A stretch of 64,000 bases of DNA from an uncultured Gammaproteobacteria bacterium (GTDB taxonomy: Bacteria > Patescibacteriota > Patescibacteriia > Magasanikbacterales > GWA2-37-8), in assembly GCA_964355175.1 (NCBI GenBank), contig CAYHBZ010000001.1:64445-128444 (forward strand), in the 5' to 3' direction. Below, piece after piece: positions 2,545-57,173 of this stretch. The notes beneath the pieces were generated by a model that saw nothing but the letters and a program-made list of their open reading frames with translations, made no database searches and had not been told where the DNA came from. Each line of letters begins with the position of its first letter. The stretch's first letter is position 1. Position numbers and translations under genes: made by a program.

Positions 2545-3042
2545 CTATTCTAAAAACGAATTTTTTCTTACTATGCTTAAAGATTTCCACCATCTTCCCA
2601 GACCAAAGTAATCCTCGGATCTGATACTGGTGGTGGCTAGGCTGAGAAAAATGACCATATATACCACATGCTCATCGAATATAGGATTATTTTTTGGAAG
2701 TAGTAGTGCTAGCCACATCAAAAACATCATGATCATTCCGGCAAAACTGGAAATTTTTATGGCGACACCCAAAATTAATCCGGTTCCAATGGCCAATAAT
2801 CCAAACATAAATAGGCAATCCACCACTACACTGCCGGATAAAGAATTAAAGAAACCGGTAAATGGCCCGGTAACACCCATCTTCAAAAATCCGCTGGTAG
2901 GGGAGCCACCGTTTATCCAAGCCTGGGCGGGCTTCGTAGCAAAACCCAAACCAAATAATTTATCAAAAAATGCCCACAAGAAAATAAAACCCATTATAAA
3001 CCGGCCGATTGTCCAAACGTATACGTCTGAAATATGTTGCAT
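2545..3042 (-). CDS. DoxX family membrane protein
   Basis: 4-TM small protein; N-terminus (FIMGFIFLWAFFDKLFGLGF) typical of DoxX/DUF417-like proteins. Confidence 0.5.
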   Translation of the reverse strand: MQHISDVYVWTIGRFIMGFIFLWAFFDKLFGLGFATKPAQAWINGGSPTSGFLKMGVTGPFTGFFNSLSGSVVVDCLFMFGLLAIGTGLILGVAIKISSFAGMIMMFLMWLALLLPKNNPIFDEHVVYMVIFLSLATTSIRSEDYFGLGRWWKSLSIVRKNSFLE

Positions 3043-3211: not shown

Positions 3212-3715
3212 CTACAAATTTGAAATAGAAATAATCTTACATTTGATATTTCCATTTTCTCGCTCTATCTCAAATTCCTCATCAATCTTTTTTTCCATCA
3301 AAGCGATTCCGACGGGGGAGTTATGAGAAATAATCCCATTGGATGGGTCTGATTCTACCGATCCTAGCAGTTTAAAAGTTTTTATTTTACCGTTCATTTC
3401 CACCGTGACTGTATTTCCAATCCGTACCTTGTCCGTATCACCAGAATTTTCTATCAAAACCGCATTATCAATCTGCTTTTGCAAAGCAAATATCCCTCCA
3501 TTAATCCCGCGCAACTTCCCCTTGGCTAGCTGATACTCCACATTTTCCGAAAAATCTCCAAGCTCGGCCAGGCGAGCCACCTCAGCCGCGGCAAATGGTT
3601 TGGATTGCTTTAAATGTTCCAATTTTTCTTTCAAATCTTCCAATTTATCGGCTGTCAAAAGCGGATCCTGTTTCATCTGGCTGAAAATTCCGGGCTTTCG
3701 GTAAGGAATACGCAT
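3212..3715 (-). CDS. greA: transcription elongation factor GreA (paralogue 1)
   Basis: N-terminal coiled coil (LEDLKEKLEHLKQ); GDFSENVEYQLAKGKL-type acidic finger; C-terminal FKBP-like fold (GNTVTVEMNGK). Confidence 0.8.
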   Translation of the reverse strand: MRIPYRKPGIFSQMKQDPLLTADKLEDLKEKLEHLKQSKPFAAAEVARLAELGDFSENVEYQLAKGKLRGINGGIFALQKQIDNAVLIENSGDTDKVRIGNTVTVEMNGKIKTFKLLGSVESDPSNGIISHNSPVGIALMEKKIDEEFEIERENGNIKCKIISISNL

Positions 3716-3825
3716 TTGTTTATATTAGATTTTTTAACGAATTTTCTAGGCAACCCTTGCTTTTTATTAAAAAATATGATAAGCTTCATTTCTTATTATA
3801 CTTTAATTAAATAAATAAGCAAATT

Positions 3826-4377
3826 ATGAAAAATTTTAGTCGACCAAGCAGCGGCGGCAGTAGAGATTTCGGCAAGAAAAGCTTCCCTGGCCGCGGTTTT
3901 GGTGGCGGTGGTGGCAGAAGCTTTGGTGGTGACCGTGGCGGTGATCGCGGCGGAGACCGACCAATGTTTTCGGCTACTTGCAGCAAATGTGGCAAAGACG
4001 CTCAGCTTCCTTTCAGACCAAGCGGTGACCGTCCGGTTTTCTGCAGCAACTGTTTTGAAACTGAAAAGAACTCCGCTCCAAGCTTTGGTGGCGCTTCCAG
4101 CTTTTCTCGCCCACCTCGCAGTTTCGACCGACCTAGCTTTGGCGACCGTCGTCCGACTCCTATGGCCGCTCCAGCTGTAAATTTGGACCAATTCAAAGCT
4201 CAATTTGAAGCCTTGAACACCAAGCTTGATCGTTTGATCCGCGCAATTGCTCCAAACGAAGCGGTTGTGTCTGAAGAAAAAGCTCCAAAAGCAAGTTTGG
4301 GTAGCAAAGCTAAAGCCGCTCCAGTAGAAGCTCCAGCAAAACCAGCTAAAAAAGCTGCTGCAAAAAAGAAGAAATAA
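3826..4377 (+). CDS. Gly/Arg-rich (RGG-repeat) protein with CxxC-x17-CxxC zinc ribbon and Lys/Ala-rich basic C-terminal tail
   Basis: GGDRGGDRGGDRP tandem repeats; CSKCG...PFRP...FCSNCF zinc-ribbon motif; C-terminal KAKAAPVEAPAKPAKKAAAKKKK; locally GC-rich codons; the antisense ORF is judged an artefact. Confidence 0.55.
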   Translation: MKNFSRPSSGGSRDFGKKSFPGRGFGGGGGRSFGGDRGGDRGGDRPMFSATCSKCGKDAQLPFRPSGDRPVFCSNCFETEKNSAPSFGGASSFSRPPRSFDRPSFGDRRPTPMAAPAVNLDQFKAQFEALNTKLDRLIRAIAPNEAVVSEEKAPKASLGSKAKAAPVEAPAKPAKKAAAKKKK

Positions 4378-4386
4378 TACTAGCTA

Positions 4387-4415
4387 TTGACAAACACCAC
4401 ATTTTGTGGTATACT
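4387..4415 (+). promoter_or_regulatory. sigma70-like promoter (TTGACA-17-TATACT) for the cold-shock gene, followed by a long 5'UTR
   Basis: near-consensus -35/-10 with 17-nt spacer, ~60 nt upstream of the csp ATG. Confidence 0.5.
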
Positions 4416-4480
4416 TGTTTTCTACATGGAAATAGTAGTCGAATTTCTGAACATGTAAGTTTACCAATAATTTTAGACCT

Positions 4481-4684
4481 ATGAAAGGATCTATCAAAAC
4501 TCTCGTAACCGACAAGAACTTTGGCTTCATTACTCCAGAATCTGGAGAAAAAGACATTTTCTTCCACGTTACAGCTCTCCAGGGCGTGCAGTTCTCCGAA
4601 TTGCGCACTGGCGATATGGTTGAATTCGAAGTAGAAGAAACTGAAAAAGGCCCTCGTGCTATCAATGTAGCTCGCGCCGCTTAA
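4481..4684 (+). CDS. cold-shock domain protein (CspA family)
   Basis: 67 aa; RNP1-like GFGFI motif (KNFGFITP) and FFHVTAL characteristic of bacterial Csp. Confidence 0.85.
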   Translation: MKGSIKTLVTDKNFGFITPESGEKDIFFHVTALQGVQFSELRTGDMVEFEVEETEKGPRAINVARAA

Positions 4685-4702
4685 TAAGTTTTCAACTTCA
4701 AA

Positions 4703-4737
4703 AAACACTCTGATTATGTCAGGGTGTTTTTGTTTTT
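4703..4737 (+). terminator. rho-independent terminator after csp
   Basis: 10-bp stem AACACUCUGA/UCAGGGUGUU followed by a U-tract. Confidence 0.65.
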
Positions 4738-4805
4738 ATTAGCTTTTTAAACTGGCTCCGGTTCTAATTTTATGGTATAGTTTAATCTGGATTAATCCAT
4801 TATTT

Positions 4806-6053
4806 ATGCGTATTGCAATTATCGGCGCGGGCGCGGCAGGCATGATGGCAGCCGCTACCATAAATGAAGAATCTCCGGAAGCAGAAGTTTTTTTAATTGA
4901 AAAAAATGACGGTTTGGGCAAAAAGGTAATTATCTCAGGCGGTGGCCGCTGTAATGTTACTACCGGTATTACTGATTTAAAAATTGTTACCAAAAAATAC
5001 CCGCGTGGAGAAAAGTTTTTAATTTCCAGCATGCACCGTTTTTCACCAGAAGATGTCCGGGCCTGGTTTGAGTCTCATGGGGTACCTCTCAAATGCGAAG
5101 ATGATCTACGTGTTTTTCCGGTTTCCAATGATGGACATGACGTGGTGCGCGCTTTTGAAACAATTTTTTCCGACAGCAATACAAAGATATTTAAAAAATC
5201 CGCTGTCCAAGCGATAGAACGAAATATGGCAAATAAAAAGTTTGTAATACAGATAAAGGGTCAGCCAGATATCGAAGCTGACTATGTGGTGTTGTCTCTG
5301 GGAGGCCAAGCCTATCGCCATACCGGGTCTACCGGTGACGGATACACCCTGGCTGAGAGCCTAGGCCATCAGATTACGCCTCTGGCGGCTAGTTTGAACT
5401 CATTTATCACCACCGAAGCCTGGCCGGCTAGTATCAGTGGAGTATCTTTTGAGCGTGCCACCTTCACCGCTGAGGGGGAGAAAAAATATAGTTTTACCGG
5501 ACCTTTTTTATTTACCCATCGTGGCATTAGCGGTCCCGCAGTATTTGCCCTATCTTCACTCATAGCCTTTGAAGATTATGGTCCAAAAAAACCTTTTGCA
5601 ATTTTTATTGATCTGTTGCCGGATGTTAAAGCGGAAAATTTAGCCTCTGAAATCAAAGAGATTATAAATAAAAATCCCAAGAAAAGTTTCCGGACTATTC
5701 TACATACCTATGTGCCGCGTTCGGTGGTAGAGACTCTAGAAAAAGAATTCCATTTACCTTTGGAAAAAAAGAGTGCCGAAGTAAGCAATAAACAAATTCA
5801 AGCGGTGATAGAAAAATTAAAACATCTGCCTGTGCACGCTGTCGGTCGGGGAGCGGGAGACGAATTCGTCACTGCCGGTGGCGTAAAATTGGAAGAAGTT
5901 AATCCCAGCACGATGGAGTCGTTAATTTGTCCAAATTTATATTTTGCCGGAGAAATTTTGGCTATCGACGGCTTTACCGGCGGCTTCAATCTGCAGGCCG
6001 CTTGGGCTACCGGTCACGCGGTCGGTGAAAGTATAGTAAATAAACTGCAATGA
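4806..6053 (+). CDS. HI0933/YhiN-family FAD-dependent oxidoreductase
   Basis: N-terminal dinucleotide-binding IAIIGAGAAG; GGGRCNVT motif typical of the HI0933 family. Confidence 0.7.
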   Translation: MRIAIIGAGAAGMMAAATINEESPEAEVFLIEKNDGLGKKVIISGGGRCNVTTGITDLKIVTKKYPRGEKFLISSMHRFSPEDVRAWFESHGVPLKCEDDLRVFPVSNDGHDVVRAFETIFSDSNTKIFKKSAVQAIERNMANKKFVIQIKGQPDIEADYVVLSLGGQAYRHTGSTGDGYTLAESLGHQITPLAASLNSFITTEAWPASISGVSFERATFTAEGEKKYSFTGPFLFTHRGISGPAVFALSSLIAFEDYGPKKPFAIFIDLLPDVKAENLASEIKEIINKNPKKSFRTILHTYVPRSVVETLEKEFHLPLEKKSAEVSNKQIQAVIEKLKHLPVHAVGRGAGDEFVTAGGVKLEEVNPSTMESLICPNLYFAGEILAIDGFTGGFNLQAAWATGHAVGESIVNKLQ

Positions 6054-7372
6054 TAAAGAAAAATTTTCTTTTCAAAATAGTCGCCGCGCTCATAATAGTA
6101 TCCAGTCTATTTCCTTTTAGCCTGCCCGCGTTTTCCGCCGATACCCAGGTGCAATTGGAGCAACAGCTCAAAGATTTGGAACAAGAAATAACCAGTTTAC
6201 AAAAACAACTAAACCTTACCACTGCGCAAAAAAATACTTTGGCCAACAAAATAAAACAGCTAAAATTAAAACAAAGTGAGCTGAGCGCTTTGATAAAACA
6301 AACAACCGTGAAAATCGACAAACTAGAGGGTAATATCAATGTCGCTGAAAAAGATTTAAAAACTAACGCTATCAGAGAAATGGAGCTGAAGGGCAATCTA
6401 ATCCGAATGATAAAAATTTCGAACCAATCCGATAAAGAGATTCTATTGGCTTTGGTATCAGCCGACGGCATGTCCAGTTTTTTTGATGAGGTTCAAAACT
6501 ATCTCAACATTTCAATTGGTTTAGAAGACATCGTCAAACAGCTACAAAAAATTCGTGTCGATATTAATCACAAAAAAACAATTTTAGAGGATCAAAAAAA
6601 TGACGCTGATAATTTATTGCAGGTTAAAACTATTCAAAAACAAGAATTGTTAAATAATATTGATGAGCAAAGTGAATTGCTCCAAAAAACTAAAGGTTTG
6701 GAAGCAAATTATAGCAGCAGTTTATCCGACAAAAAAAAGCTGGCTGTTCAGATACGCAGCCGTATTTATGAATTATTTAATACCGGCAAACAGATAAATT
6801 TCGGAGAAGCAGTGGAAATTGCCAAGCTGGCCAATCGTCTTACCGGTATCAATGTCGCTTTTGTGCTCGCGATTCTGACCCAAGAATCCAACCTGGGGAA
6901 AAATGTCGGCACCTGCAACCGGCCCAATGATCCGCCGGAAAAAAGCTGGAAAGTGATAATGAAACCAACGCGTGATCAGGAACCATTTAAAAAAATTACC
7001 GAAGAGCTTGGTTTGAATATCGACGCCACACCGGTCTCTTGTCCGATGAAAGATAAAAAAGGTAATCAAGTAGGCTGGGGTGGGGCAATGGGGCCGGCAC
7101 AGTTTATCCCCTCGACCTGGATGGGCTTTAAAGATAAGGTAGCGGCCATAACTGGAAAAGGCATGGCCAATCCTTGGGACATTCGCGATGCCTTTATCGC
7201 TTCCGGACTCAAATTAAGAGCCGCCGGAGCCGCGGATACGGAAGCCAGCTGGTGGAAAGCCGGGATGATATATTTTTCCGGCTCTACCAATACGCAATTT
7301 CGCTTTTACGGTGATAATGTGGTATCATTAACCAAGAAGTACCAACAAGATATTGAGAATCTCAATAATTAA
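6050..7372 (+). CDS. secreted coiled-coil protein with C-terminal lytic-transglycosylase/lysozyme-like domain (putative murein hydrolase)
   Basis: signal peptide; ~200 aa of heptad-rich Q/L/K sequence; C-terminal LAILTQESNLG (SLT-like catalytic Glu context). Confidence 0.4.
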   Translation: MIKKNFLFKIVAALIIVSSLFPFSLPAFSADTQVQLEQQLKDLEQEITSLQKQLNLTTAQKNTLANKIKQLKLKQSELSALIKQTTVKIDKLEGNINVAEKDLKTNAIREMELKGNLIRMIKISNQSDKEILLALVSADGMSSFFDEVQNYLNISIGLEDIVKQLQKIRVDINHKKTILEDQKNDADNLLQVKTIQKQELLNNIDEQSELLQKTKGLEANYSSSLSDKKKLAVQIRSRIYELFNTGKQINFGEAVEIAKLANRLTGINVAFVLAILTQESNLGKNVGTCNRPNDPPEKSWKVIMKPTRDQEPFKKITEELGLNIDATPVSCPMKDKKGNQVGWGGAMGPAQFIPSTWMGFKDKVAAITGKGMANPWDIRDAFIASGLKLRAAGAADTEASWWKAGMIYFSGSTNTQFRFYGDNVVSLTKKYQQDIENLNN

Positions 7373-7378
7373 AAACCT

Positions 7379-7834
7379 ATGTCAAAAAAAATAAAAACTC
7401 TCTTATTTTTAAGTTTGGCCCTAGTATCTCTTTTTTTAATAACACCAGCCGTCTTCGCCAAAACACCACCAAAACCGGTAAAGAAAACTGAAGTTGTCAA
7501 AAAAGTGGTAGTAACAAAAAAAGTTGTCAAAAAAGTGGTCAAACCGGTAAAAAAAGCCGTAGTAAAAAAGACAGCTACCAAAAATATTCCGATGAATCAG
7601 CTGCCGAATCCCAACTCAGCTGGATCTGCTCCGATGAAGATCTACTTAAAAACTATCAACGACGCCCGTCTCACTTTTAAAAAAGAACAGGCTAAAGCAA
7701 AAACCAAAGAAGTCAAACAGGCGGCCGAAGATAAATATTCTCAAGCGGTACAAGAAGCGATGGACATATTAAGTGCTTCCAAAATAAACACCACAACAAA
7801 CACCGCGGAAAATTCTTCTAGCACAAACCAATAA
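7379..7834 (+). CDS. secreted Lys/Val-rich repeat protein
   Basis: signal peptide; KKVVVTKKVVKKVVKPVKKAVVKK tandem repeats; followed by a terminator. Confidence 0.45.
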   Translation: MSKKIKTLLFLSLALVSLFLITPAVFAKTPPKPVKKTEVVKKVVVTKKVVKKVVKPVKKAVVKKTATKNIPMNQLPNPNSAGSAPMKIYLKTINDARLTFKKEQAKAKTKEVKQAAEDKYSQAVQEAMDILSASKINTTTNTAENSSSTNQ

Positions 7835-7838
7835 TTAA

Positions 7839-7876
7839 AAAATCCCTCGAATTACTCGGGGGATTTTTTAATTATT
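7839..7876. terminator. bidirectional rho-independent terminator
   Basis: aaaaaatccctcgaattactcgggggatttttt hairpin with A-run and T-run. Confidence 0.7.
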
Positions 7877-7982
7877 TTTGTCTTTTACCCAGGCGAATAT
7901 GTCTGGTTTTGGCTTTTACAGCCTTGCCTTTTTTGGTATTTTTCTTGGCATGGTCCAAGCGGGCACGTAGGGCTCCATTCAT
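7872..7982 (-). CDS. unlisted sORF: 36-aa highly basic peptide (MNGALRARLDHAKKNTKKGKAVKAKTRHIRLGKRQK)
   Basis: complete ATG..TAA ORF on the minus strand; minus-strand promoter TTGATT-16-TATAAT (8015-8042); ends inside the bidirectional terminator; ribosomal-protein-like composition. Confidence 0.35.
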   Translation of the reverse strand: MNGALRARLDHAKKNTKKGKAVKAKTRHIRLGKRQK

Positions 7983-8097
7983 AAAAATAGGATTACTTAA
8001 TTTAACTGCTTATTATTATACACCTTTTTTAGAAAAAATCAATAGGAGTGGGTTTTTACCTTTGCAATTTAAGCTGTTTTTTGGTAAAATTTAGCTC

Positions 8098-8808
8098 ATG
8101 ACCGCCACTATTAATAATTTTATTAAAGAGGTAAAGACTGCCGGCGACCAAACCAAAGCTACGGTTTTAAGTCGTTTTTTTAAAACCGGTAAAGGCCAGT
8201 ATGGGGAAGGTGATATCTTTTTGGGAGTATATGTACCGATTCAGCGCCAAATTGCCAAAAAATATTCCACCTTGCCGCTAATAGATATCCAAACTTTATT
8301 AAAAAGCAAAATTCATGAACATCGTTTGGGCGCTTTATTTATTCTCTGCGATCAGTTCAAAAAAGCCGATGAGAAGACCAAGGAAAAAATATTTAAATTT
8401 TATCTCAAAAATTCTAAGAGTGTAAATAATTGGGATCTGGTAGACTTATCCGCGCCAAATATTGTAGGGGAGTGGCTATCAAAAAAAAATAAAAAGATTT
8501 TATACAAATTAGCGCGCTCCAAAAATCTCTGGCAAAAACGAATAGCGATTGTGAGCACCTACACTTTTATCCGCGCCAAACAACTGGAAGATACAATCAA
8601 GATTTCCGAAATTCTGATAGGAGACACGCACGACCTGGTTCACAAAGCGGTCGGCTGGATGTTGCGCGAAGCCGGCAAGCGCGATGAAGCGGTATTGATA
8701 AAATTTTTGGACAAACACGCCGCCAAAATGCCCCGCACGATGCTAAGATACTCAATAGAAAAATTTAATCCATCGACACGTAAATACTATCTATGCCTCA
8801 AGCCATAA
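8098..8808 (+). CDS. DNA alkylation repair enzyme (AlkD/AlkC-like HEAT-repeat glycosylase family)
   Basis: matches the DNA_alkylation family pattern; promoter TTGCAA-17-TAAAAT at 8062-8090. Confidence 0.6.
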
Positions 8809-9860
8809 CCTCAGCGGTAGCGCCAAAAAAACGCAATCATTTTATTTCATATATCAAAGGTTACGCTATCTTGAGTGTGCTTTTAATTCATATGATTGAT
8901 TGGTCCAATGTTATCATTGGACCGACTGGCATGTGGCTTAAAGAGCTTTTATATCCAGGCGTATTTTTCTTTATGGCCACTTCGGGTAGTGTGGTATATA
9001 TTGCGTATGCCAAATCGGAGACTTGGATCAAACCGGCCAAAAAATTATTTTTGCGCGGTCTGCAGTTGATAGGAATTTATTACGCGTACAACATCGTTAA
9101 ATTATTTATTTATGATTTTTCCAAAGAACCTTTTTATTGGCAGTTTACCAATAATGGTACGATGAGTCTAAAAAATATCGTGGAGCTCCGGGCCTATTCT
9201 GCCCCGATTTCTATTTTGATTACTATCGGCGTGATGATAATGTTATCGCCCTTACTTTTGGCTATTAGTAGAAAAATTAAATTCCCAAATTTAGTTCTTT
9301 CTCTTTTACTGACCGCTCTGCTGTATGCGGTTTATTGGCATACTTGGAGCGGCCCAATCGCTGATTTCCTATTTGCGCGCACCAATGTTATGTTTCCGAT
9401 AGCGCTTTGGTCTATTCCATTTTTAATCGGATATTTATTGGCCTCTTTCGGATTTGAAGAAAAAAGGAAATGGTGGGTATTAATTTTTGTGCCCCTGATG
9501 GCAGTATTTTATTATCTACGCGCGAAAACCGGCCTGGAGTTGAAGCCGTCGCATTCTATGTACCCGCTCCAAGCGTATTATATGGCAGCATCTTTATTCT
9601 TTGTTAGTATTTTATTTTATCTTTTTGCTTGGACCGAAAAAATACCTCTAGCATTGACGAAGAAAAAATTGGCGCTAATCAGATTTTTGGGTGATTACAC
9701 TTTGTCGGTTTATATTTGGCATTGGATAGTGGTGGATATTACCATTTGGATTTTTTATCCAAATACCAAATTAATTTGGGCTACAGTGATCGGATTTTTG
9801 TTGTTGTATATATTTATTAAGCGTGCTAAATTTAAGGAGTATTTAATGAACCAAGTTTAA
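8793..9860 (+). CDS. acyltransferase family 3 (membrane O-acyltransferase)
   Basis: ~10 TM helices; N-terminal [13 protein letters not shown] resembling the acyltransferase_3 signature. Confidence 0.45.
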
Positions 9861-9863
9861 TAT

Positions 9864-10361
9864 ATGGATTTCTTAGCAATCTTCGCAGCTCAGTATTTAA
9901 TTTTTATAATTATTGCGGTCGGAATAGCTTTTTTCTTACACCGTCCGCGTGCCGAGAAAAGAGAAATTTTAGTTTTTTCTTTTATCACTTTGCCAATTAT
10001 TTTTATCGTTTCTAGAATTTGCGCGGCGTTGTATTACAACCCACGTCCTTTTGTGGATAATCAATTTCTGGCTTTAATACCACACAAACCAAACAATGGT
10101 TTTCCATCCGATCACACTCTGCTGTCCAGCGCTGTCGCCATGGTTGTCTGGCATTTCCACAAAAAAGTTGGTTATCTTTTATTGGCCTTGGCACTGCTCG
10201 TCGGTTTAGCTCGCGTCTATGTGGGCGTTCATCATTATTTAGATATTTTTACCAGTTTAATTATTAGTTTTGTGATAGTGTTGATAATAGAAAAAACAAT
10301 TTGGACAAAAATAAAATCACACCACAATTTTTTCGCCTTTTTTGATAGAATTAGATTCTAA
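9864..10361 (+). CDS. PAP2-family phosphatase (undecaprenyl-diphosphatase-like)
   Basis: PAP2 motifs PSDH (PSGH-like) and RVYVGVHHYLD (SR-x5-H-x3-D). Confidence 0.6.
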   Translation: MDFLAIFAAQYLIFIIIAVGIAFFLHRPRAEKREILVFSFITLPIIFIVSRICAALYYNPRPFVDNQFLALIPHKPNNGFPSDHTLLSSAVAMVVWHFHKKVGYLLLALALLVGLARVYVGVHHYLDIFTSLIISFVIVLIIEKTIWTKIKSHHNFFAFFDRIRF

Positions 10362-51840: not shown

Positions 51841-52818
51841 ATGCGCTATTTTCATTCCAATAAAAACTTCAACCAATACAAACCGAGTGTATCTTTTTGG
51901 GATAGATTTAAAAAAAAACATCCTCAGAGGGGACTGAACACGATAAAAACACCAAATGTATTATCCAATCCTTTCAAAAGGGAACAGCCAAAACCCAAAA
52001 ACTACAAAAAGATATTTGTTACCGCTTTTATTTTGTTAATATTCTTAGGCTGGATTACTCTCATGCTGACCCTGCCATATTTTAAAATAAACAACATCGT
52101 AATAAATGGAACAAAAATTAGCAAATCTGCGGAAGTAAATGATTATGTTCGTTATGGTGATTATTTTAAAGATGGCTTGGTGTCACGAAGAAATTATTTT
52201 CTTTTCCAGGATAAAACCGTAGCCCAAAAAATACAAAATAAATTTTTGTATGAAAAAGTAGAAATAAAAAAGAATTTTCCCAACACTGTCAATATAATTA
52301 TCAGCGAAAAACCGGCGAGTATTATCTATGATAATAATGGAATAATATATTTACTTGATAAAGACGGCAAAATTATCAAAAAAACAAAGCTCTCCTATAA
52401 TAATACAAACCCAGCGCAACCGGCTTTAAGTCCTACCACCACACCGATAATTTCCTTGAATCAGGCCGCTTCTAGGGCTTATGAAGAAACTATGGCAGAA
52501 TATGGTAACTTTCCGGTAATTATCGATCATAAGACGATTTCAACCAACGATGATAAGCTTTTATCCGCAAAATTAATAGAGACTGCCCAACTATGGCACA
52601 AATATTTAAAAGAACAGGCGATAGGGGAAATAAAATTTTTTAGCACCGATGAAACAGACTTTAATTTGAAAATTACTTTAAATAAACCCTGGTATATACT
52701 AATAAACACTCAAAGTGACACGAACTCCCAAATGCGCAACCTAAAAATGATTTTATCAAGCAGTAATCCGACCAGCTATATAGATCTACGATTTGGAGAT
52801 CGGGTATACTGGAAATAA
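51841..52818 (+). CDS. FtsQ/DivIB-like cell-division protein (POTRA-containing)
   Basis: N-terminal cytoplasmic tail plus single TM; POTRA-like INNIVINGTKISKSAEV. Confidence 0.45.
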   Translation: MRYFHSNKNFNQYKPSVSFWDRFKKKHPQRGLNTIKTPNVLSNPFKREQPKPKNYKKIFVTAFILLIFLGWITLMLTLPYFKINNIVINGTKISKSAEVNDYVRYGDYFKDGLVSRRNYFLFQDKTVAQKIQNKFLYEKVEIKKNFPNTVNIIISEKPASIIYDNNGIIYLLDKDGKIIKKTKLSYNNTNPAQPALSPTTTPIISLNQAASRAYEETMAEYGNFPVIIDHKTISTNDDKLLSAKLIETAQLWHKYLKEQAIGEIKFFSTDETDFNLKITLNKPWYILINTQSDTNSQMRNLKMILSSSNPTSYIDLRFGDRVYWK

Positions 52819-52840
52819 AAAAGTCGCGCAACCTCATAAT

Positions 52841-52872
52841 TAAAATCTCTGAAATTTAATCAGAGATTTTTT
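52841..52872 (+). terminator. rho-independent terminator
   Basis: aaaatctctga-aatttaa-tcagagatttt. Confidence 0.6.
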
Positions 52873-52945
52873 ATTTAAAAATTTTAAAGGGAGACGGTAG
52901 AGGAGTGGCCGAAACGGGTGTGGATAAGGCCGCTTTACAGCTGGG

Positions 52946-53488
52946 TTGCTTTGTTATATAATTGAGTATAATAACTCTTACACTCAGTTATATGTACTAA
53001 TTATGCGCTTAAATAAGACAAAATCAATTAGCTTGGCCTTTAGCACCCCTTTTGATCTTTTAATGAAAAAACTATATTCAGAAAAAGAAATGTCGACTCC
53101 GGAAATTTCTGATTATATTTTTAAACAAGTAAAAATTTTTATAACTCCAAGATCAATTCAAAGAGAAATAAAAAAACTTGGATTAATCAGAGGTCTGAGT
53201 GATGCTTTTAAACTGGCTATAAAGAAAGGTAGAAAATCCTACGAGCACCTCAAAAAACCCATTAAGTCTTCCCTACTGCGCCACGGAATCACTTTGAAGA
53301 CCAGATTTGAGGTTTTCCAAAGAGACAGCTCACGCTGTGTTATTTGCGGCAAAACTGCTCAAGATGATATACTAGTAGTCGATCATATCATTCCGGTGGT
53401 CAAGGGAGGGACAAACAACATAAAAAACCTCAGAACATTATGCCGAGAGTGTAACCACGGCAAGATGCTTTTAAATGAACATATATGA
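52946..53488 (+). CDS. HNH endonuclease with N-terminal HTH-like region
   Basis: CVICGKT...VDHIIPVVKGGTNNIKNLRTLCRECNHGK = HNH with Cys4 zinc site; alternative start ATG 53003; stop overlaps the next gene's start (ATGA). Confidence 0.7.
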   Translation: MLCYIIEYNNSYTQLYVLIMRLNKTKSISLAFSTPFDLLMKKLYSEKEMSTPEISDYIFKQVKIFITPRSIQREIKKLGLIRGLSDAFKLAIKKGRKSYEHLKKPIKSSLLRHGITLKTRFEVFQRDSSRCVICGKTAQDDILVVDHIIPVVKGGTNNIKNLRTLCRECNHGKMLLNEHI

Positions 53489-54438
53489 CCTCCAACCAAT
53501 TCCCACTTCCCTACTTTGATGATTTTATTTTAAATCTTAAAGCCAATAATTTTTCGGAAGAAACTGCGTATAATTATGAACGCGATTTAAAAACTTTTGA
53601 ATCTTTTTTAAGTAACGACATAAAAAAATCTTTTGACCAAATAAATAAAACTGATATTTTACGTTTTAAGGCTTATCTTGGCTCATCTGAACGCAAAACT
53701 GCTGAAGACAAAAAACCAGAAAAAAAGCTTAATAGCTACTCTATAAACCGCATACTTTCTTCAATGCGCTCTTATTTGAAATTCATGGAAGACATGGACC
53801 ATAAATCCCCAATATCCTCTAATGCAATAAAACTGCTTAAAAACGAGAAAAAAAGCGCGCGCGTACCGGAATTTGAACAACTTATCAAACTCATTGAAGC
53901 ACCGACAAAATATGAAGAAAAAATCCAAGTAGCATTGCGTAACCGGGCGCTACTGGAAACTTTATTCGCTACCGGCATGCGTATCTCCGAACTTTTATCT
54001 CTAAAAGTTGAGCAGATCGACCAAACTGGTAAAATATATATCATGGGTAAAGGTAAAAAACAAAGATTTGTCTATCTGACACCCCGAGCTCTTGTCCATT
54101 TAAAAAGTTATTTAGCCAAAAGAAACAGCACTTCAGATATGTTGTTTGTTCCTTACCGCGGCCGCAATAATAATGAAAAAAATAAAAAACTTTCGACTAA
54201 TTATTTACAATACAAAATCAAACAATACCGTCAGTTATTGGATATAAATTTGCCAATCAGCGCCCATACTTTACGCCACAGCTTTGCCACTTTTTTGGCA
54301 GAAAAAGGTGCCAATCCAGCCGCTATTCAAATCCTTTTGGGCCACGAATCACTTGATACCACCACTAGATATGTACATGCTTCAGATAGATATGCGGAGA
54401 AGACGCATCACGAATTTCATCCACTCTTTGATAAATAA
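53485..54438 (+). CDS. Xer-like tyrosine recombinase (XerC/XerD family)
   Basis: N-terminal SAM-like domain (ETAYNYERDLKTFESFL); catalytic R...HTLRHSFAT...LLGHESLDTTTRYVH with the Tyr. Confidence 0.75.
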   Translation: MTSNQFPLPYFDDFILNLKANNFSEETAYNYERDLKTFESFLSNDIKKSFDQINKTDILRFKAYLGSSERKTAEDKKPEKKLNSYSINRILSSMRSYLKFMEDMDHKSPISSNAIKLLKNEKKSARVPEFEQLIKLIEAPTKYEEKIQVALRNRALLETLFATGMRISELLSLKVEQIDQTGKIYIMGKGKKQRFVYLTPRALVHLKSYLAKRNSTSDMLFVPYRGRNNNEKNKKLSTNYLQYKIKQYRQLLDINLPISAHTLRHSFATFLAEKGANPAAIQILLGHESLDTTTRYVHASDRYAEKTHHEFHPLFDK

Positions 54439-54466
54439 TTTTTTCTACTCGCTTGAAAATAAAAAA

Positions 54467-54497
54467 ATATCCCCCAACTTAATCGGGGGATATTTTT
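54467..54497 (+). terminator. rho-independent terminator after the recombinase
   Basis: atatccccc-aacttaatc-gggggatat plus T-run. Confidence 0.65.
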
Positions 54498-54539
54498 AAT
54501 TTCGGTTGTCATCAGACCTCACTTCACTAATGCTGACTT

Positions 54540-54855
54540 CAAAAAATAAACATTAGGGAACGGTGAGGTCTGCGCGCAGCAAACTCCGCCCGCCCTCGGA
54601 AGGACCTTGTTGGTCATCCCACAACTTCCAGCACCGAAAGTGCCAGCTGGGCCTCTTGGGCACGAGCAAAAGTCACCTGCAGGCACAGGTGGCGCTCGTT
54701 GCGACGATGAGGCACACGCCCAGCGCAATTCGGACAGCCGGAATCGCGAGGAGGCCGAGCTGAAGTCAGGGGAGCATTGGAACGAAAAGGACGTGCTTTG
54801 TCTGCCATTGTGTTTCCTTCGGTAAACGGATACAGTGCGAGAAACAACCTTCAAA
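54540..54855 (-). ncRNA. GC-rich structured RNA candidate of unknown class (~310 nt), probably minus strand
   Basis: GC-rich and stop-poor on both strands between the terminators of the recombinase and ddl; minus-strand promoter TTGACT-17-TACTAT at 54856-54884; minus-strand 3' end has a UCUGCGCGCAGA hairpin then a U-run; no tRNA-like domain found by eye. Confidence 0.3.
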
Positions 54856-54884
54856 ATAGTATCTCAAATATGGCTAAAAGTCAA

Positions 54885-54914
54885 GAAAACAGCCCTACTA
54901 TAGGCTGTTTTCTT
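54885..54914. terminator. terminator for the minus-strand ddl unit (bidirectional hairpin)
   Basis: gaaaacagcc-ctactata-ggctgttttc. Confidence 0.55.
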
Positions 54915-54928
54915 CATAATTTATATTT

Positions 54929-55909
54929 TTATAATGCCGCCGAAATTATCAAATCAAGCATTTTTGGAAACGATATCCCCGCTTTTCCAGCCGCTTCCGG
55001 AAGTAGACTAGTTCCAGTCATCCCAGGAATAGTGTTGGTTTCTATTATATATACTCGCCCATCATCCCCAAGAAAAAAATCACTGCGACTCATCCCCCGA
55101 CAGCCCAGCGCTTTGTGAGCGGTAACTGCTAATTCTTGCATCGTTTTATTCACATCTTCTGAAAAATCCGCCGGACAAATATGTTTGGATCCACCTGGCA
55201 AATATTTGGATTTATAATCATAAAATTTCCCCACTTGCGGCAAAATATGAGTTGGCGGCAAAGCAAACGCCTCACCTTTTTTCTCGAGCACTCCACAAGT
55301 AGCTTCTTGGCCTTTGATAAATTTCTGCGCCAATAGCCAAGGAAATTTTTTAATTGTTTTGTTCACTGTCTGTTTGAGATCATCTTCGGTTTTTATTATA
55401 CTTACCCCTACTGCCGATCCTTGATCTACCGGTTTCACCACACACGGATAACCGACACTAGTATTGATAGCCGCCAAAACTTCTTTCTGGCTGTTTTTCC
55501 AATTTTTGGCAGTGATATCAATAAAAGCCGGATGCGGCAAATGCCAAGAATAATATATCAGACCAGCATACACTTTATTCATACACAGCGCGCTACTTAG
55601 AGTATTTGGACCGGTATATTTGATACCCAGCGCTTCAAATATCCCTTGCACCGTACCGTCCTCCCCTGGCGTACCGTGCAAAGCAATAAATACTACATCA
55701 AATAATTTTCTGTCTTTATTTACAAAATCTACCAATCTTTTTTTATTTTTTATTTTCAAAACAAAATGATTATCTTGAGTCATTTCCACCAAACTCGGCG
55801 CATATTTTTTACGATCCAAATTATCAAAAACAGCTTGACCCGTGACCAGAGAAACTTCTCTTTCCGAAGATGACCCTCCGTACAATACCGCCACTTTTAA
55901 TTTCTTCAT
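54929..55909 (-). CDS. ddl: D-alanine--D-alanine ligase
   Basis: ATP-grasp; MKKLKVAVLYGGSSSEREVSL N-terminus; full-length Ddl homology. Confidence 0.85.
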   Translation of the reverse strand: MKKLKVAVLYGGSSSEREVSLVTGQAVFDNLDRKKYAPSLVEMTQDNHFVLKIKNKKRLVDFVNKDRKLFDVVFIALHGTPGEDGTVQGIFEALGIKYTGPNTLSSALCMNKVYAGLIYYSWHLPHPAFIDITAKNWKNSQKEVLAAINTSVGYPCVVKPVDQGSAVGVSIIKTEDDLKQTVNKTIKKFPWLLAQKFIKGQEATCGVLEKKGEAFALPPTHILPQVGKFYDYKSKYLPGGSKHICPADFSEDVNKTMQELAVTAHKALGCRGMSRSDFFLGDDGRVYIIETNTIPGMTGTSLLPEAAGKAGISFPKMLDLIISAAL

Positions 55910-55934
55910 AGGCTTATATTAAATATCTATGATT

Positions 55935-57173
55935 TTACGGCAAATAACCCAACGGGTCAACCGGAATACCGTTGGAGCGAACTTCAAAATGCAAATGAGC
56001 GCCGGTTACAAATGGACCAGATCCCACCATCCCAGGAGTTCCACCGGAATAACCAATTATGTCACCCTTATTCACAAATTGCTCATCGTTAATCAAAATT
56101 GAACTAATGTGACCATAGAGAGTAGACAAATTACCATTGTGGATAATCAATATATAACTATAACAAGTGGAAACAGTACAACGCTTAGCGCGCCCAATAT
56201 AGCCGGATGCGGCGGCCCGCACTATTGAGCCTTGAGGCATACGAATATCTATGCCACTATGTTGAAAAACATTTTTAAACGGATAATCCGGATCATGAAA
56301 ACGCGATGTAACATAATGACCGCTTACCGGCCAGCCAAAATCATCAACATCGCTAGGTTTATTAGCAAATCTATCCTGATCGGATAATTTTTTACGCACC
56401 TGTGCTTCAAAAGAAGAAACTTCATTTTCTACCAATTTGTATTGAGCGCGCATACTGTCGAGCAAAGTTTGATAGCGCAATTCCGATGATTTGGTCTGCA
56501 CCAACAAAGTTTCTTTATTATTTTTTTCATCGGTCAGATCCTTTTTTTGATTGTTTAGCTGATCCAAAAACTTATCATAATCTGTTTTTTTTACTTCGGC
56601 CAAAGTTTTTTTACCATCCAGATCTTCTTTGGCAATACGTACTCCTTTTACGGTGCGACCTAGATCGATATAAACATTTTCCAGATATTTTGCCTGATTA
56701 TAAAAATTGGCAAAATTGCTATTAGTAAGCATTATCTCCAAAAAATTCTTCTGATCATTGGCATGGAGGCTCTGGACCATCTTTCCAATCATTCTTTTTT
56801 CGCGATCAATAGTATCTTCTTTTTCTGCAATGGAAATAGTCAGAGCCTCAATTTCCAGCTGAGTTTTTTGTAATTCTTGGTTAGTCAGATCCACATCCGC
56901 TTGGGTCTGAGCAATATGATTATTGATAATGCTCATCTGATTTTTCAAGGACACTCCCTCGGTTTGTTTTTGCGCAATATTTTGTTTGTAGGTACTAATA
57001 GTATCTTCAAGCTGTTTAATCTTGTCTTTACGCAATTGAATTTCTTTATTAAGCTGTTCGACTTCCGGATTCACAGTAGAGGTGACAGTTTCCGCTAAAA
57101 CCAAAAAACTACTGGCGGAAAATAATCCGAAAGCAAGTAATAAAAAAAGGGTGATTTTGACTCTTTTTTGCAT
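55935..57173 (-). CDS. M23-family metallopeptidase with N-terminal coiled coil (EnvC/NlpD-like murein hydrolase)
   Basis: signal anchor; long coiled coil; C-terminal HxxxD...HLHFE LytM motifs (GIDIRMPQGS, YGH, HLHFEV). Confidence 0.8.
   Translation of the reverse strand: MQKRVKITLFLLLAFGLFSASSFLVLAETVTSTVNPEVEQLNKEIQLRKDKIKQLEDTISTYKQNIAQKQTEGVSLKNQMSIINNHIAQTQADVDLTNQELQKTQLEIEALTISIAEKEDTIDREKRMIGKMVQSLHANDQKNFLEIMLTNSNFANFYNQAKYLENVYIDLGRTVKGVRIAKEDLDGKKTLAEVKKTDYDKFLDQLNNQKKDLTDEKNNKETLLVQTKSSELRYQTLLDSMRAQYKLVENEVSSFEAQVRKKLSDQDRFANKPSDVDDFGWPVSGHYVTSRFHDPDYPFKNVFQHSGIDIRMPQGSIVRAAASGYIGRAKRCTVSTCYSYILIIHNGNLSTLYGHISSILINDEQFVNKGDIIGYSGGTPGMVGSGPFVTGAHLHFEVRSNGIPVDPLGYLP

Follow-up and report, generated by a model that had tools for sequence, protein, structure and literature searches.

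Within a 64-kb stretch of contig CAYHBZ010000001.1 (all 64,000 nt of which are hereafter called the window) lies a gene for a protein of 183 amino acids (aa), with a net charge of +18, that we call the zinc protein. The gene stands between a divergent greA gene and, downstream on its own strand, a CspA-family cold-shock gene (csp) that has its own promoter, leader and terminator (Table 1). An initial annotation of this DNA had described the protein as an RGG-rich N terminus, a CxxC-x17-CxxC zinc ribbon and a histone H1-like tail, and had proposed that it forms an RNA-chaperone neighbourhood with csp. The three-part composition stands and proved to be conserved across the Patescibacteria (candidate phyla radiation, CPR). 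The cysteine module belongs, by its profile matches, to a catalogued zinc-finger family, and the gene recurs beside genes for ABC-F ATPases, cold-shock domain (CSD) proteins and GreA in two sets of loci, suggesting that the protein handles RNA.

Table 1. Features of the zinc-protein locus in order along the window (ORF, open reading frame; HMM, hidden Markov model; pLDDT, predicted local distance difference test score)
Feature	Position	Strand	Basis
greA, divergent, 111 bp upstream of the zinc-protein gene	3212..3715	-	PF03449, PF01272
Antisense ORF, 135 aa, inside a 195-codon open frame	3796..4203	-	By-product of the Gly/Ala/Arg/Pro-rich sense frame, no gene
Zinc-protein gene, 183 aa, CxxC-x17-CxxC (PF23477/TIGR04272)	3826..4377 including stop codon	+	ORF, HMM matches, 409 homologues
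N-terminal disordered region, residues 1-46: MKNFSR, then Gly/Arg/Phe-rich (di-RGG, GGDR x3)	3826..3963	+	Composition, pLDDT ~45
Zinc module, residues 47-82: C52, C55, C73, C76; conserved PFRP and RPVFCSNCF	3964..4071	+	HMM, alignment, model
Linker, residues 83-117: disordered, conserved RPSFGDR; place of the second finger in two-finger homologues	4072..4176	+	Alignment, pLDDT 49-58
Amphipathic helix QFEALNTKLDRLIRAI, residues 118-143, conserved	4177..4254	+	Model, homologue motif counts
Tail, residues 144-183: Ala/Lys/Pro-rich, basic, net charge +7	4255..4374	+	Composition, predicted disordered
csp promoter, sigma-70-type, TTGACA-17-TATACT, TG before -10, 11/12 matches; starts 10 nt past the zinc-protein stop codon	4387..4415	+	Sequence
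csp leader, inferred, ~58 nt	4422..4480	+	Start inferred from promoter
csp, CspA-family cold-shock protein gene, 67 aa	4481..4684	+	PF00313 E 5.4e-24, profile positions 1-64/66
Strong intrinsic terminator, 14-pair stem and T run; closes the zinc-protein/csp unit	4701-4731	+	
HI0933-like flavoprotein gene	4806..6053	+	PF03486 E 2e-77

The zinc-protein gene is locally GC-rich (51%, against 39% for the window), as had been noted. Its GC content at third codon positions (0.39) is close to the window mean (0.37, standard deviation 0.04), so that the richness stems from Gly, Ala, Arg and Pro codons, and it is this codon composition that leaves the antisense frame open. The antisense ORF had been taken as spurious, rightly, because it is the plus-strand frame that is conserved, with invariant cysteines, in 409 homologues; the possibilities that homologues would lack the cysteine ligands or that the frame would not be conserved both failed on the same evidence. 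The three GGDR units form a 12-nt repeat (2.7 copies, 80% match, positions 3928-3959) whose copies are encoded by differing synonymous codons, an indication of selection on the peptide instead of recent slippage. Judged by conservation and codon use, the ORF is a real gene.

HMM searches assigned the module to a family that the initial annotation had not recognized: Pfam PF23477 (zf_Tbcl_2; 61 bits against a cut-off of 27, with residues 45-81 covering profile positions 1-37 of 37), which Pfam labels a 'probable treble clef zinc finger', and NCBIfam TIGR04272 (cxxc_cxxc_Mbark, 'CxxC-x17-CxxC domain'; 59.4 bits against 36). On these scores the zinc protein is a member of a family that is catalogued but has no assigned function, and a literature search on PF23477, PF13451 and TIGR04272 found no papers. 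Among 5.8 billion proteins searched, 409 were homologous over their full length, with E values down to 1e-95, and every one of these carries PF23477. Those with a named source all come from metagenome-assembled genomes of Patescibacteria/CPR (Uhr-, Falkow-, Magasanik-, Buchanan- and Peregrinibacteria), the group in which a search for relatives had been suggested. When 1.84 billion cluster representatives were searched exhaustively with a profile, at least 7395 clusters at 50% identity were matched (E up to 1e-3), and relatives occur in at least 594 species-representative genomes.

Two mini-proteins of Methanosarcina mazei that share the module (A00184 and A01980) bind zinc as measured by inductively coupled plasma mass spectrometry in a 2025 study, whose authors offered a role in transcription as speculation (PMC12704099). 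They have the module, its cysteine spacing, the PF(R/K)P and (R/K)PV(F/Y)C strings and short basic flanks in common with the window protein, but are stand-alone proteins of about 50-60 aa, whereas the window protein adds a 46-residue RG/FG-rich N terminus, a linker, a heptad helix and a Lys/Ala/Pro tail. Given its invariant four cysteines (Cys4) and these archaeal relatives, the window protein probably binds zinc as well.

In an AlphaFold2 model for which 35 homologues were used, order is predicted for the finger and the helix only; pLDDT is low in the N terminus and the linker, and the tail is predicted to be disordered too. Residues 1-46 contain 16 Gly and 10 Lys/Arg (net charge +6), with RG at residue 23 and RGG at residues 37 and 41. 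The latter two form a di-RGG (RGGDRGG); there is no tri-RGG. Such di- and tri-RGG motifs were reportedly described by Thandapani and colleagues in 2013 as closely spaced RGG repeats, and closely spaced repeats within a predicted disordered region, which characterize an RGG box, are present here. Four FG pairs also occur, within residues 1-46 or the linker.

In the zinc module the model places a beta-hairpin (strands 48-51 and 58-61) before a helix (residues 74-83; pLDDT ~90). Because the first CxxC lies in the hairpin and the second opens helix 74-83, the module of about 37 residues is predicted to fold as a treble clef and not as the two-knuckle zinc ribbon first proposed, a prediction for which the search of solved structures gave no significant match. 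The suggested likeness to YacG, a DNA gyrase inhibitor, likewise reduces to a local CxxCGK...PFRP(F)CS string within a small Cys4 zinc module. Homology to YacG (PF03884) was rejected, with no Pfam match at E up to 1, hhalign at 15% over 19 columns (the YacG and DksA sequences used with hhalign were entered by hand) and a Foldseek match to 1lv3 at E 3.7; the spacing in YacG, CxxC-x15-CxxxC, differs, and there are no gyrase genes among the recurrent neighbours of the zinc-protein gene. A sequence search of the PDB gave chance matches only (neuroglobin, CPSF4), with no solved ribosome chain matched.

The second ordered element is predicted as a helix over residues 120-141 (pLDDT ~88), in which we read L120, F123, F127, L130, L134, L137 and I141 as heptad a/d positions. 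N131 and K133, which are invariant, and D135, which is nearly so, occupy flanking or exposed positions, and the combination of a clean heptad with conserved exposed residues suggests that the helix serves in dimerisation or in docking on a conserved partner. In the tail, the H1-like composition that had been described is evident in the window protein, whose final 30 residues include 10 Lys, 10 Ala and 4 Pro; across homologues such a tail turned out to be common and not universal, as some variants are acidic or tail-less (see below).

The window protein is, on this sequence evidence, a one-finger member of a long subfamily of the Patescibacteria that we define here, whose members begin with MxNFxR and an RG-rich region, carry one or two fingers and the conserved heptad helix LNxKLDxIL, and mostly end in a Lys-rich tail. 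Across the alignment of 35 divergent homologues the four cysteines of the CxxC-x17-CxxC pattern (C52, C55, C73 and C76), as initially read, are invariant, together with P62, F63, F77, N131 and K133, and the conservation of the cysteines and of PF(R/K)P/(R/K)PV(F/Y)C..CF holds in two further domain alignments. Counted over the 120 best homologues, two fingers are present in 84 and one in 36, the helix motif [LIVMF]-N-x-K-[LIVMF]-[DE] in 108 (LNTKLD at residues 130-135 of the window protein), and a Lys/Arg-rich end (7 or more Lys/Arg among the final 20 residues) in 105; the N-terminal region has a median of 27% Gly and 21% Lys/Arg, and the window protein begins with MKNFSR. The two-finger majority form is not that of the window protein, which nevertheless keeps the RPSFGDR lead-in of a lost second finger and is therefore a one-finger variant rather than a non-member.

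Around this layout the family varies widely. Long forms with another ending are rare: two members labelled Nanoarchaeota/uncultured archaeon (L034, 878-1471; L083, 9863-10309) carry a strongly acidic Asp/Glu tail and keep the RGG region, the finger and the LNxKLD helix, and the protein of L046 ends directly after the helix; the Lys tail thus lies outside the conserved core. Stand-alone fingers of 46-77 aa, flanked by GG..GPREM and KRK, are found in Omnitrophota and several archaeal groups, and up to five tandem fingers, joined by RGGDRGGHRGGDRGG or Arg/Ser-rich linkers and accompanied by no other domain, occur in P0241, P0242, P0249 and P0264. In Chloroflexota, fusions of about 110 aa (L044, L058, L060, L064, L070, L072, L077 and L085) join PF13451 (zf_Tbcl) to PF23477 through a G/R/Y-rich linker; they resemble the window protein in having the same finger after a G/R-rich linker, but have an extra N-terminal treble-clef type and lack the heptad helix, the Lys tail and CSD neighbours. 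In at least one of them (L058) a gene for a RhlE/CshA-like DEAD-box helicase lies 61 bp downstream of the fusion gene. The top 150 matches of the exhaustive search are all of 340 aa or less and consist of fingers and linkers. From the architectures surveyed, the finger's constant companion is basic low-complexity sequence and never an enzyme. Searching with a single sequence for proteins that carry the conserved helix in another setting gave no candidates.

The zinc-protein gene and csp share a codon bias that is absent from greA and from 42 other ORFs of the window taken as reference. Ala is preferably encoded by GCT and Glu by GAA, GGA/GGG and GCG are avoided, and Phe, Asp and Asn tend to have C-ending codons, at 17/31 in the zinc-protein gene compared with about 25% in the reference (p 4e-4). 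Such a pattern is typical of highly expressed bacterial genes, and this codon usage suggests abundant production of the zinc protein along with the cold-shock protein. The assignment of the downstream gene to the CspA family, with a near-consensus promoter, is upheld (Table 1). The cold-shock protein has the KNFGFI and IFFHV (RNP1-like and RNP2-like) strands and matches CspE/C/A-like NCBIfam models below their equivalog cut-offs, so that no named Escherichia coli paralogue was reached. No terminator was found between the two genes, and read-through from the zinc-protein gene into csp is therefore plausible.

The long 5' untranslated region attributed to csp was not recovered: the inferred leader is short (Table 1) and folds no better than shuffled sequence (z -0.17), and a structured leader or thermosensor was rejected on that ground. 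The -35 and -10 elements are kept in L001, the locus of the closest relative (91% protein identity), in which an inverted repeat of the promoter spacer (ACCACAttttGTGGT, 4396-4410) is degenerate, so that the repeat is probably not an operator. Identity between the window and L001 is 57/59 in the leader, 198/204 in csp, 471/540 in the zinc-protein gene and 414/503 in greA, making csp and its leader the most constrained part of the locus. As a unit csp and leader (4422-4684) are 97% identical in DNA to L001, against 82-87% for the greA and zinc-protein genes, which suggests either unusually strong constraint or recent exchange.

To describe the genomic neighbourhood we used two sets of loci: the best 80 of at least 594 matches in species-representative genomes, giving 57 non-redundant CPR-type loci (set 1), and, independently, the best 80 of at least 586 matches on metagenome contigs, giving 59 non-redundant CPR-type loci whose flanks came to only 264 kb (set 2). 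In the 80 loci from species-representative genomes, ORFs were called and clustered with no prior choice of genes, and HMMs made from the clusters were then used for the counts in both sets; significance is given as binomial p-values that assume genes spread uniformly along the DNA covered. After the lineage-specific synteny of the Chloroflexota, the largest neighbour clusters were ABC-F, DEAD-box helicase, cold-shock, GreA, HI0933-like and a small GIY-YIG protein. The ABC-F neighbour has 483-506 aa and two ABC_tran domains and matches NCBIfam NF000355 and EttA/Uup-like models (with ABC_tran_Xtn in L027), and the DEAD-box RNA helicase is CshA/RhlE-like. ABC-F genes were within 3 kb in 11/11 cases in set 1 (p 1e-5) and within 300 bp in 7/9 in set 2 (p 1e-5). 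CSD genes followed the same pattern (7/10 within 1 kb in set 1, p 5e-5; 6/10 within 300 bp in set 2, p 4e-4), as did GreA (4/7 and 4/4 within 300 bp, p 8e-5 and 2e-4 respectively). DEAD-box genes gave 4/9 within 3 kb in set 1, with no distance enrichment, and 4/9 within 300 bp in set 2 (p 0.017). The genomic link to ABC-F, CSD and GreA is thus replicated in two sets, and that to DEAD-box helicases is less consistent. Of the 26 set 2 loci whose flanks reach 1 kb or more in either direction, 14 hold one of these four genes within 1 kb. The GIY-YIG nuclease was present as a neighbour in set 1 and absent in set 2, and hence was not counted.

The arrangements of these genes differ from locus to locus. 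L001 keeps the order of the window, with greA divergent from the zinc-protein gene and csp following; more distant homologues have a variable context with recurring themes. The zinc-protein gene lies between CSD and ABC-F genes in L018, L045 and L120, and is followed by CSD and HI0933-like genes in the window and in L156. In L116 and L166 it is preceded by ABC-F, and a CSD gene lies on the other strand; L158 has this layout with DEAD-box in place of ABC-F. In L046 a CSD gene comes first, then the zinc-protein gene after 53 bp and a DEAD-box gene after a further 115 bp. Some of these layouts are operon-like: the gap to ABC-F is 4-9 nt in L018, L045, L027 and L120, and in L018, where csp has its own terminator, the ABC-F ATG is 4 nt past the zinc-protein stop codon. 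The zinc proteins of loci with these neighbours have a median identity of 45-50%, and gene order varies, so that the linkage is not one inherited block.

The CSD link extends to stand-alone mini-proteins outside the CPR. In an Omnitrophota locus (L089; 3562-4168 and 6024-6512), tandem PF23477 genes of 133 and 55 aa are followed about 1.9 kb downstream, on the same strand, by two tandem CSD genes. In L091/L092 (4001-4168), a gene for a 55-aa stand-alone finger lies upstream of nrdD and diverges from the gene of a ZIP-family zinc transporter, the sole zinc-homeostasis context among the loci inspected.

Since the gene lies repeatedly beside genes for cold-shock proteins, ABC-F proteins, helicases and a transcription factor, the protein probably handles RNA. 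With moderate confidence we read the zinc protein as an abundant, multivalent RNA-binding protein or RNA chaperone that acts on mRNA or ribosomes. The proposal of an RNA-chaperone neighbourhood agrees with the loci, in which CSD genes within 1 kb exceed expectation in both sets and ABC-F, DEAD-box and GreA genes recur; that the protein itself binds RNA is what we infer from these features of sequence and context. It would bind RNA with no strict sequence specificity through several weak sites, which may be the RGG region, an aromatic/basic face of the zinc module (F48, F63, R64, R69, F72 and F77) and the Lys tail, and the helix would pair two copies of the protein or dock it on a partner. It might then serve as an RNA chaperone or annealer, or as a ribosome- or mRNA-associated factor, beside the neighbouring cold-shock protein; its companions in other lineages, clustered or co-transcribed with it, would be an ABC-F ribosome ATPase, a DEAD-box RNA helicase or GreA. 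The basic low-complexity flanks that accompany the finger in mini-, multi-finger and Chloroflexota architectures are consistent with this.

Several observations weigh against an RNA role. Distance enrichment was absent for DEAD-box genes in set 1, more than half of the loci have none of the four neighbours, other neighbours have no relation to RNA (an AI-2E transporter, GIY-YIG) or are obscure (HI0933-like), and the 64-kb window itself contains no ABC-F or DEAD-box gene. A Foldseek search with the zinc protein returned no significant relative of solved structure from which a binding mode could be gained, and no fusion to an enzymatic or RNA-binding domain that would hint at function appeared among the top 120 domain-profile matches or the top 150 of the exhaustive search. 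The Lys tail is just as typical of DNA-binding proteins and, as the acidic and tail-less variants indicate, is not essential to the core function; the codon bias is based on small codon numbers.

Two groups of eukaryotic proteins offer analogies for RNA binding by such a combination of parts. Plant AtCSP/AtGRP2 and WCSP1, and Lin28, unite a CSD, Gly-rich regions and CCHC zinc knuckles and have documented RNA-chaperone roles; the window has the same three ingredients, split over two adjacent, probably co-expressed genes instead of one polypeptide, and the CCHC knuckle is not homologous to the Cys4 treble clef. The FET proteins (FUS/EWS/TAF15) place a Cys4 RanBP2 zinc finger between RGG regions and bind RNA multivalently. 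The window protein likewise has a Cys4 finger flanked by RGG-type disorder, but the FET finger has an unrelated fold, and these eukaryotic proteins have in addition an RNA recognition motif, a prion-like domain and arginine methylation.

Other explanations account for parts of these data. The protein could be a stoichiometric component of the ribosome, a dedicated ribosome factor (accessory, assembly or hibernation) or an obligate partner of the short ABC-F protein, rather than a free general chaperone. ABC-F is indeed its most frequent and tightest neighbour, and a small, very basic, zinc-binding protein with disordered extensions and the codon bias of highly expressed genes resembles many ribosomal proteins. 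CPR bacteria have, according to PMC12641178, about half the usual number of ribosome biogenesis factors. We nonetheless consider this explanation unlikely, as no inspected locus has the gene in a ribosomal-protein operon, only some 20 of the 116 CPR-type loci have ABC-F nearby, the variation in finger number (1-5) and tail chemistry would be unusual for a fixed ribosomal component, and ribosome chains matched its fold only at E > 4 by Foldseek and not at all by PDB sequence. One Foldseek match, to a chain of a Methanosarcina ribosome/SriA-SriB entry, was dropped: the Sri paper treats non-Sri bacterial matches as other CBS-domain-containing proteins, so that the Sri proteins are seemingly CBS-type and unrelated.

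Somewhat harder to sustain is a role as a nucleoid-associated, histone H1-like protein whose Lys/Ala/Pro tail and RGG region serve to compact or coat DNA. The net charge of the protein, the H1-like composition of the tail KAKAAPVEAPAKPAKKAAAKKKK and the frequency of Lys/Arg-rich ends among homologues (105/120) would all suit it. The last 30 or so residues are also similar to Chlamydia Hc1, Pseudomonas AlgP and the C terminus of mycobacterial HupB, though in composition only; the remainder of the protein is unrelated to these, and the tail of the window subfamily is sometimes acidic or absent. Acidic-tail and tail-less variants keep the RGG region, finger and helix, the family includes mini-proteins with no long tail, and the recurrent neighbours are genes of RNA, translation and transcription elongation, not of DNA metabolism. 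All this makes a DNA-coating role rather improbable.

The presence of greA as immediate neighbour here and in at least eight other loci (L001, L002, L017, L047, L093, L102, L113 and L114 among them) raises the alternative of a transcription factor associated with RNA polymerase, acting with or like secondary-channel factors of the GreA/DksA type. DksA of E. coli has the same CxxC-x17-CxxC spacing, some archaeal mini-members are labelled 'DNA-directed RNA polymerase' at source, and Foldseek gave a weak match to RNA polymerase subunit P (9bct_P, probability 0.30). That match is not significant (E 2.1), however, and a relationship to the DksA/TraR C4 finger (PF01258) was rejected, since the hhalign probability with DksA is only 0.9%, Pfam zf-dskA_traR gives no match even at E up to 1, and the AlphaFold2 model has a single 22-residue helix in place of a coiled-coil hairpin. 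With ABC-F and CSD neighbours commoner than GreA, we regard a polymerase factor as a poor candidate.

A zinc buffer, store or zinc-responsive switch with incidental basic regions would agree with zinc binding by the family (PMC12704099) and with the mini-member gene beside a ZIP transporter gene. It is nevertheless highly improbable, as one site per roughly 180 residues makes a poor store, the recurrent CPR-type neighbours include no zinc-homeostasis genes, and the conserved helix and flanks favour macromolecular interactions. Finally, that the region is merely low-complexity GC-rich DNA open on both strands is refuted by 409 homologues with invariant cysteines and a conserved helix, HMM scores twice the curated cut-offs and the varied codons of the GGDR repeats.

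Among the other neighbours, the gene downstream of csp encodes an HI0933-like flavoprotein binding flavin adenine dinucleotide (PF03486 with a barrel/H2TH domain, PF22780) that recurs within a few kb of the zinc-protein gene, in seven CPR-type loci of set 1, six of set 2 and one Omnitrophota locus with mini-fingers (besides the window: L013, L014, L015, L022, L045, L059, L089, L112, L122, L138, L156 and L167). By its recurrence it is at most a possible functional partner. In L001 a 1086-aa gene with no Pfam match (6959-10219) is inserted between csp and the HI0933-like gene; it is absent from the corresponding interval of the window (4685-4805). Downstream of greA, a hydrophobic ORF of 165 aa with no Pfam match (2545-3042, minus strand) keeps its position, and its length of 165 aa, in L001. 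Further along the window, at about 52000-56000, the GC skew flips from weakly positive to about -0.19; genes are oriented on the plus strand up to 54435 and on the minus strand from 54932, a convergent pattern compatible with a replication terminus. Scans of the whole window found neither a tRNA gene nor any Rfam family that reaches the gathering threshold.

The family itself (PF23477/TIGR04272) was already known; new here are the anatomy of the subfamily and its replicated genomic link. It is large, conserved across the Patescibacteria and probably highly expressed, and the only experimental fact about it in the literature searched is the zinc binding of its archaeal mini-versions. Were the protein a plain nucleoid protein, the interest would be modest. 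A more specific version of the RNA-binding reading, which we put forward tentatively and think has a small chance of being right, is that the long CPR form is an abundant, lineage-wide RNA-remodelling co-factor that is a physical partner of the short ABC-F protein at the ribosome and works jointly with the cold-shock protein and the DEAD-box helicase, possibly forming condensates through its RGG/FG region, and that it could offset the halved set of ribosome biogenesis factors; if so, it would in effect be a minimal RNA-chaperone toolkit in reduced genomes. The linkage to ABC-F, cold-shock, DEAD-box and GreA genes provides a testable way into RNA folding and translation in ultra-small bacteria with few ribosome biogenesis factors, and the protein would be a clear bacterial case of the RGG and zinc-finger logic known from eukaryotic RNA-binding proteins.

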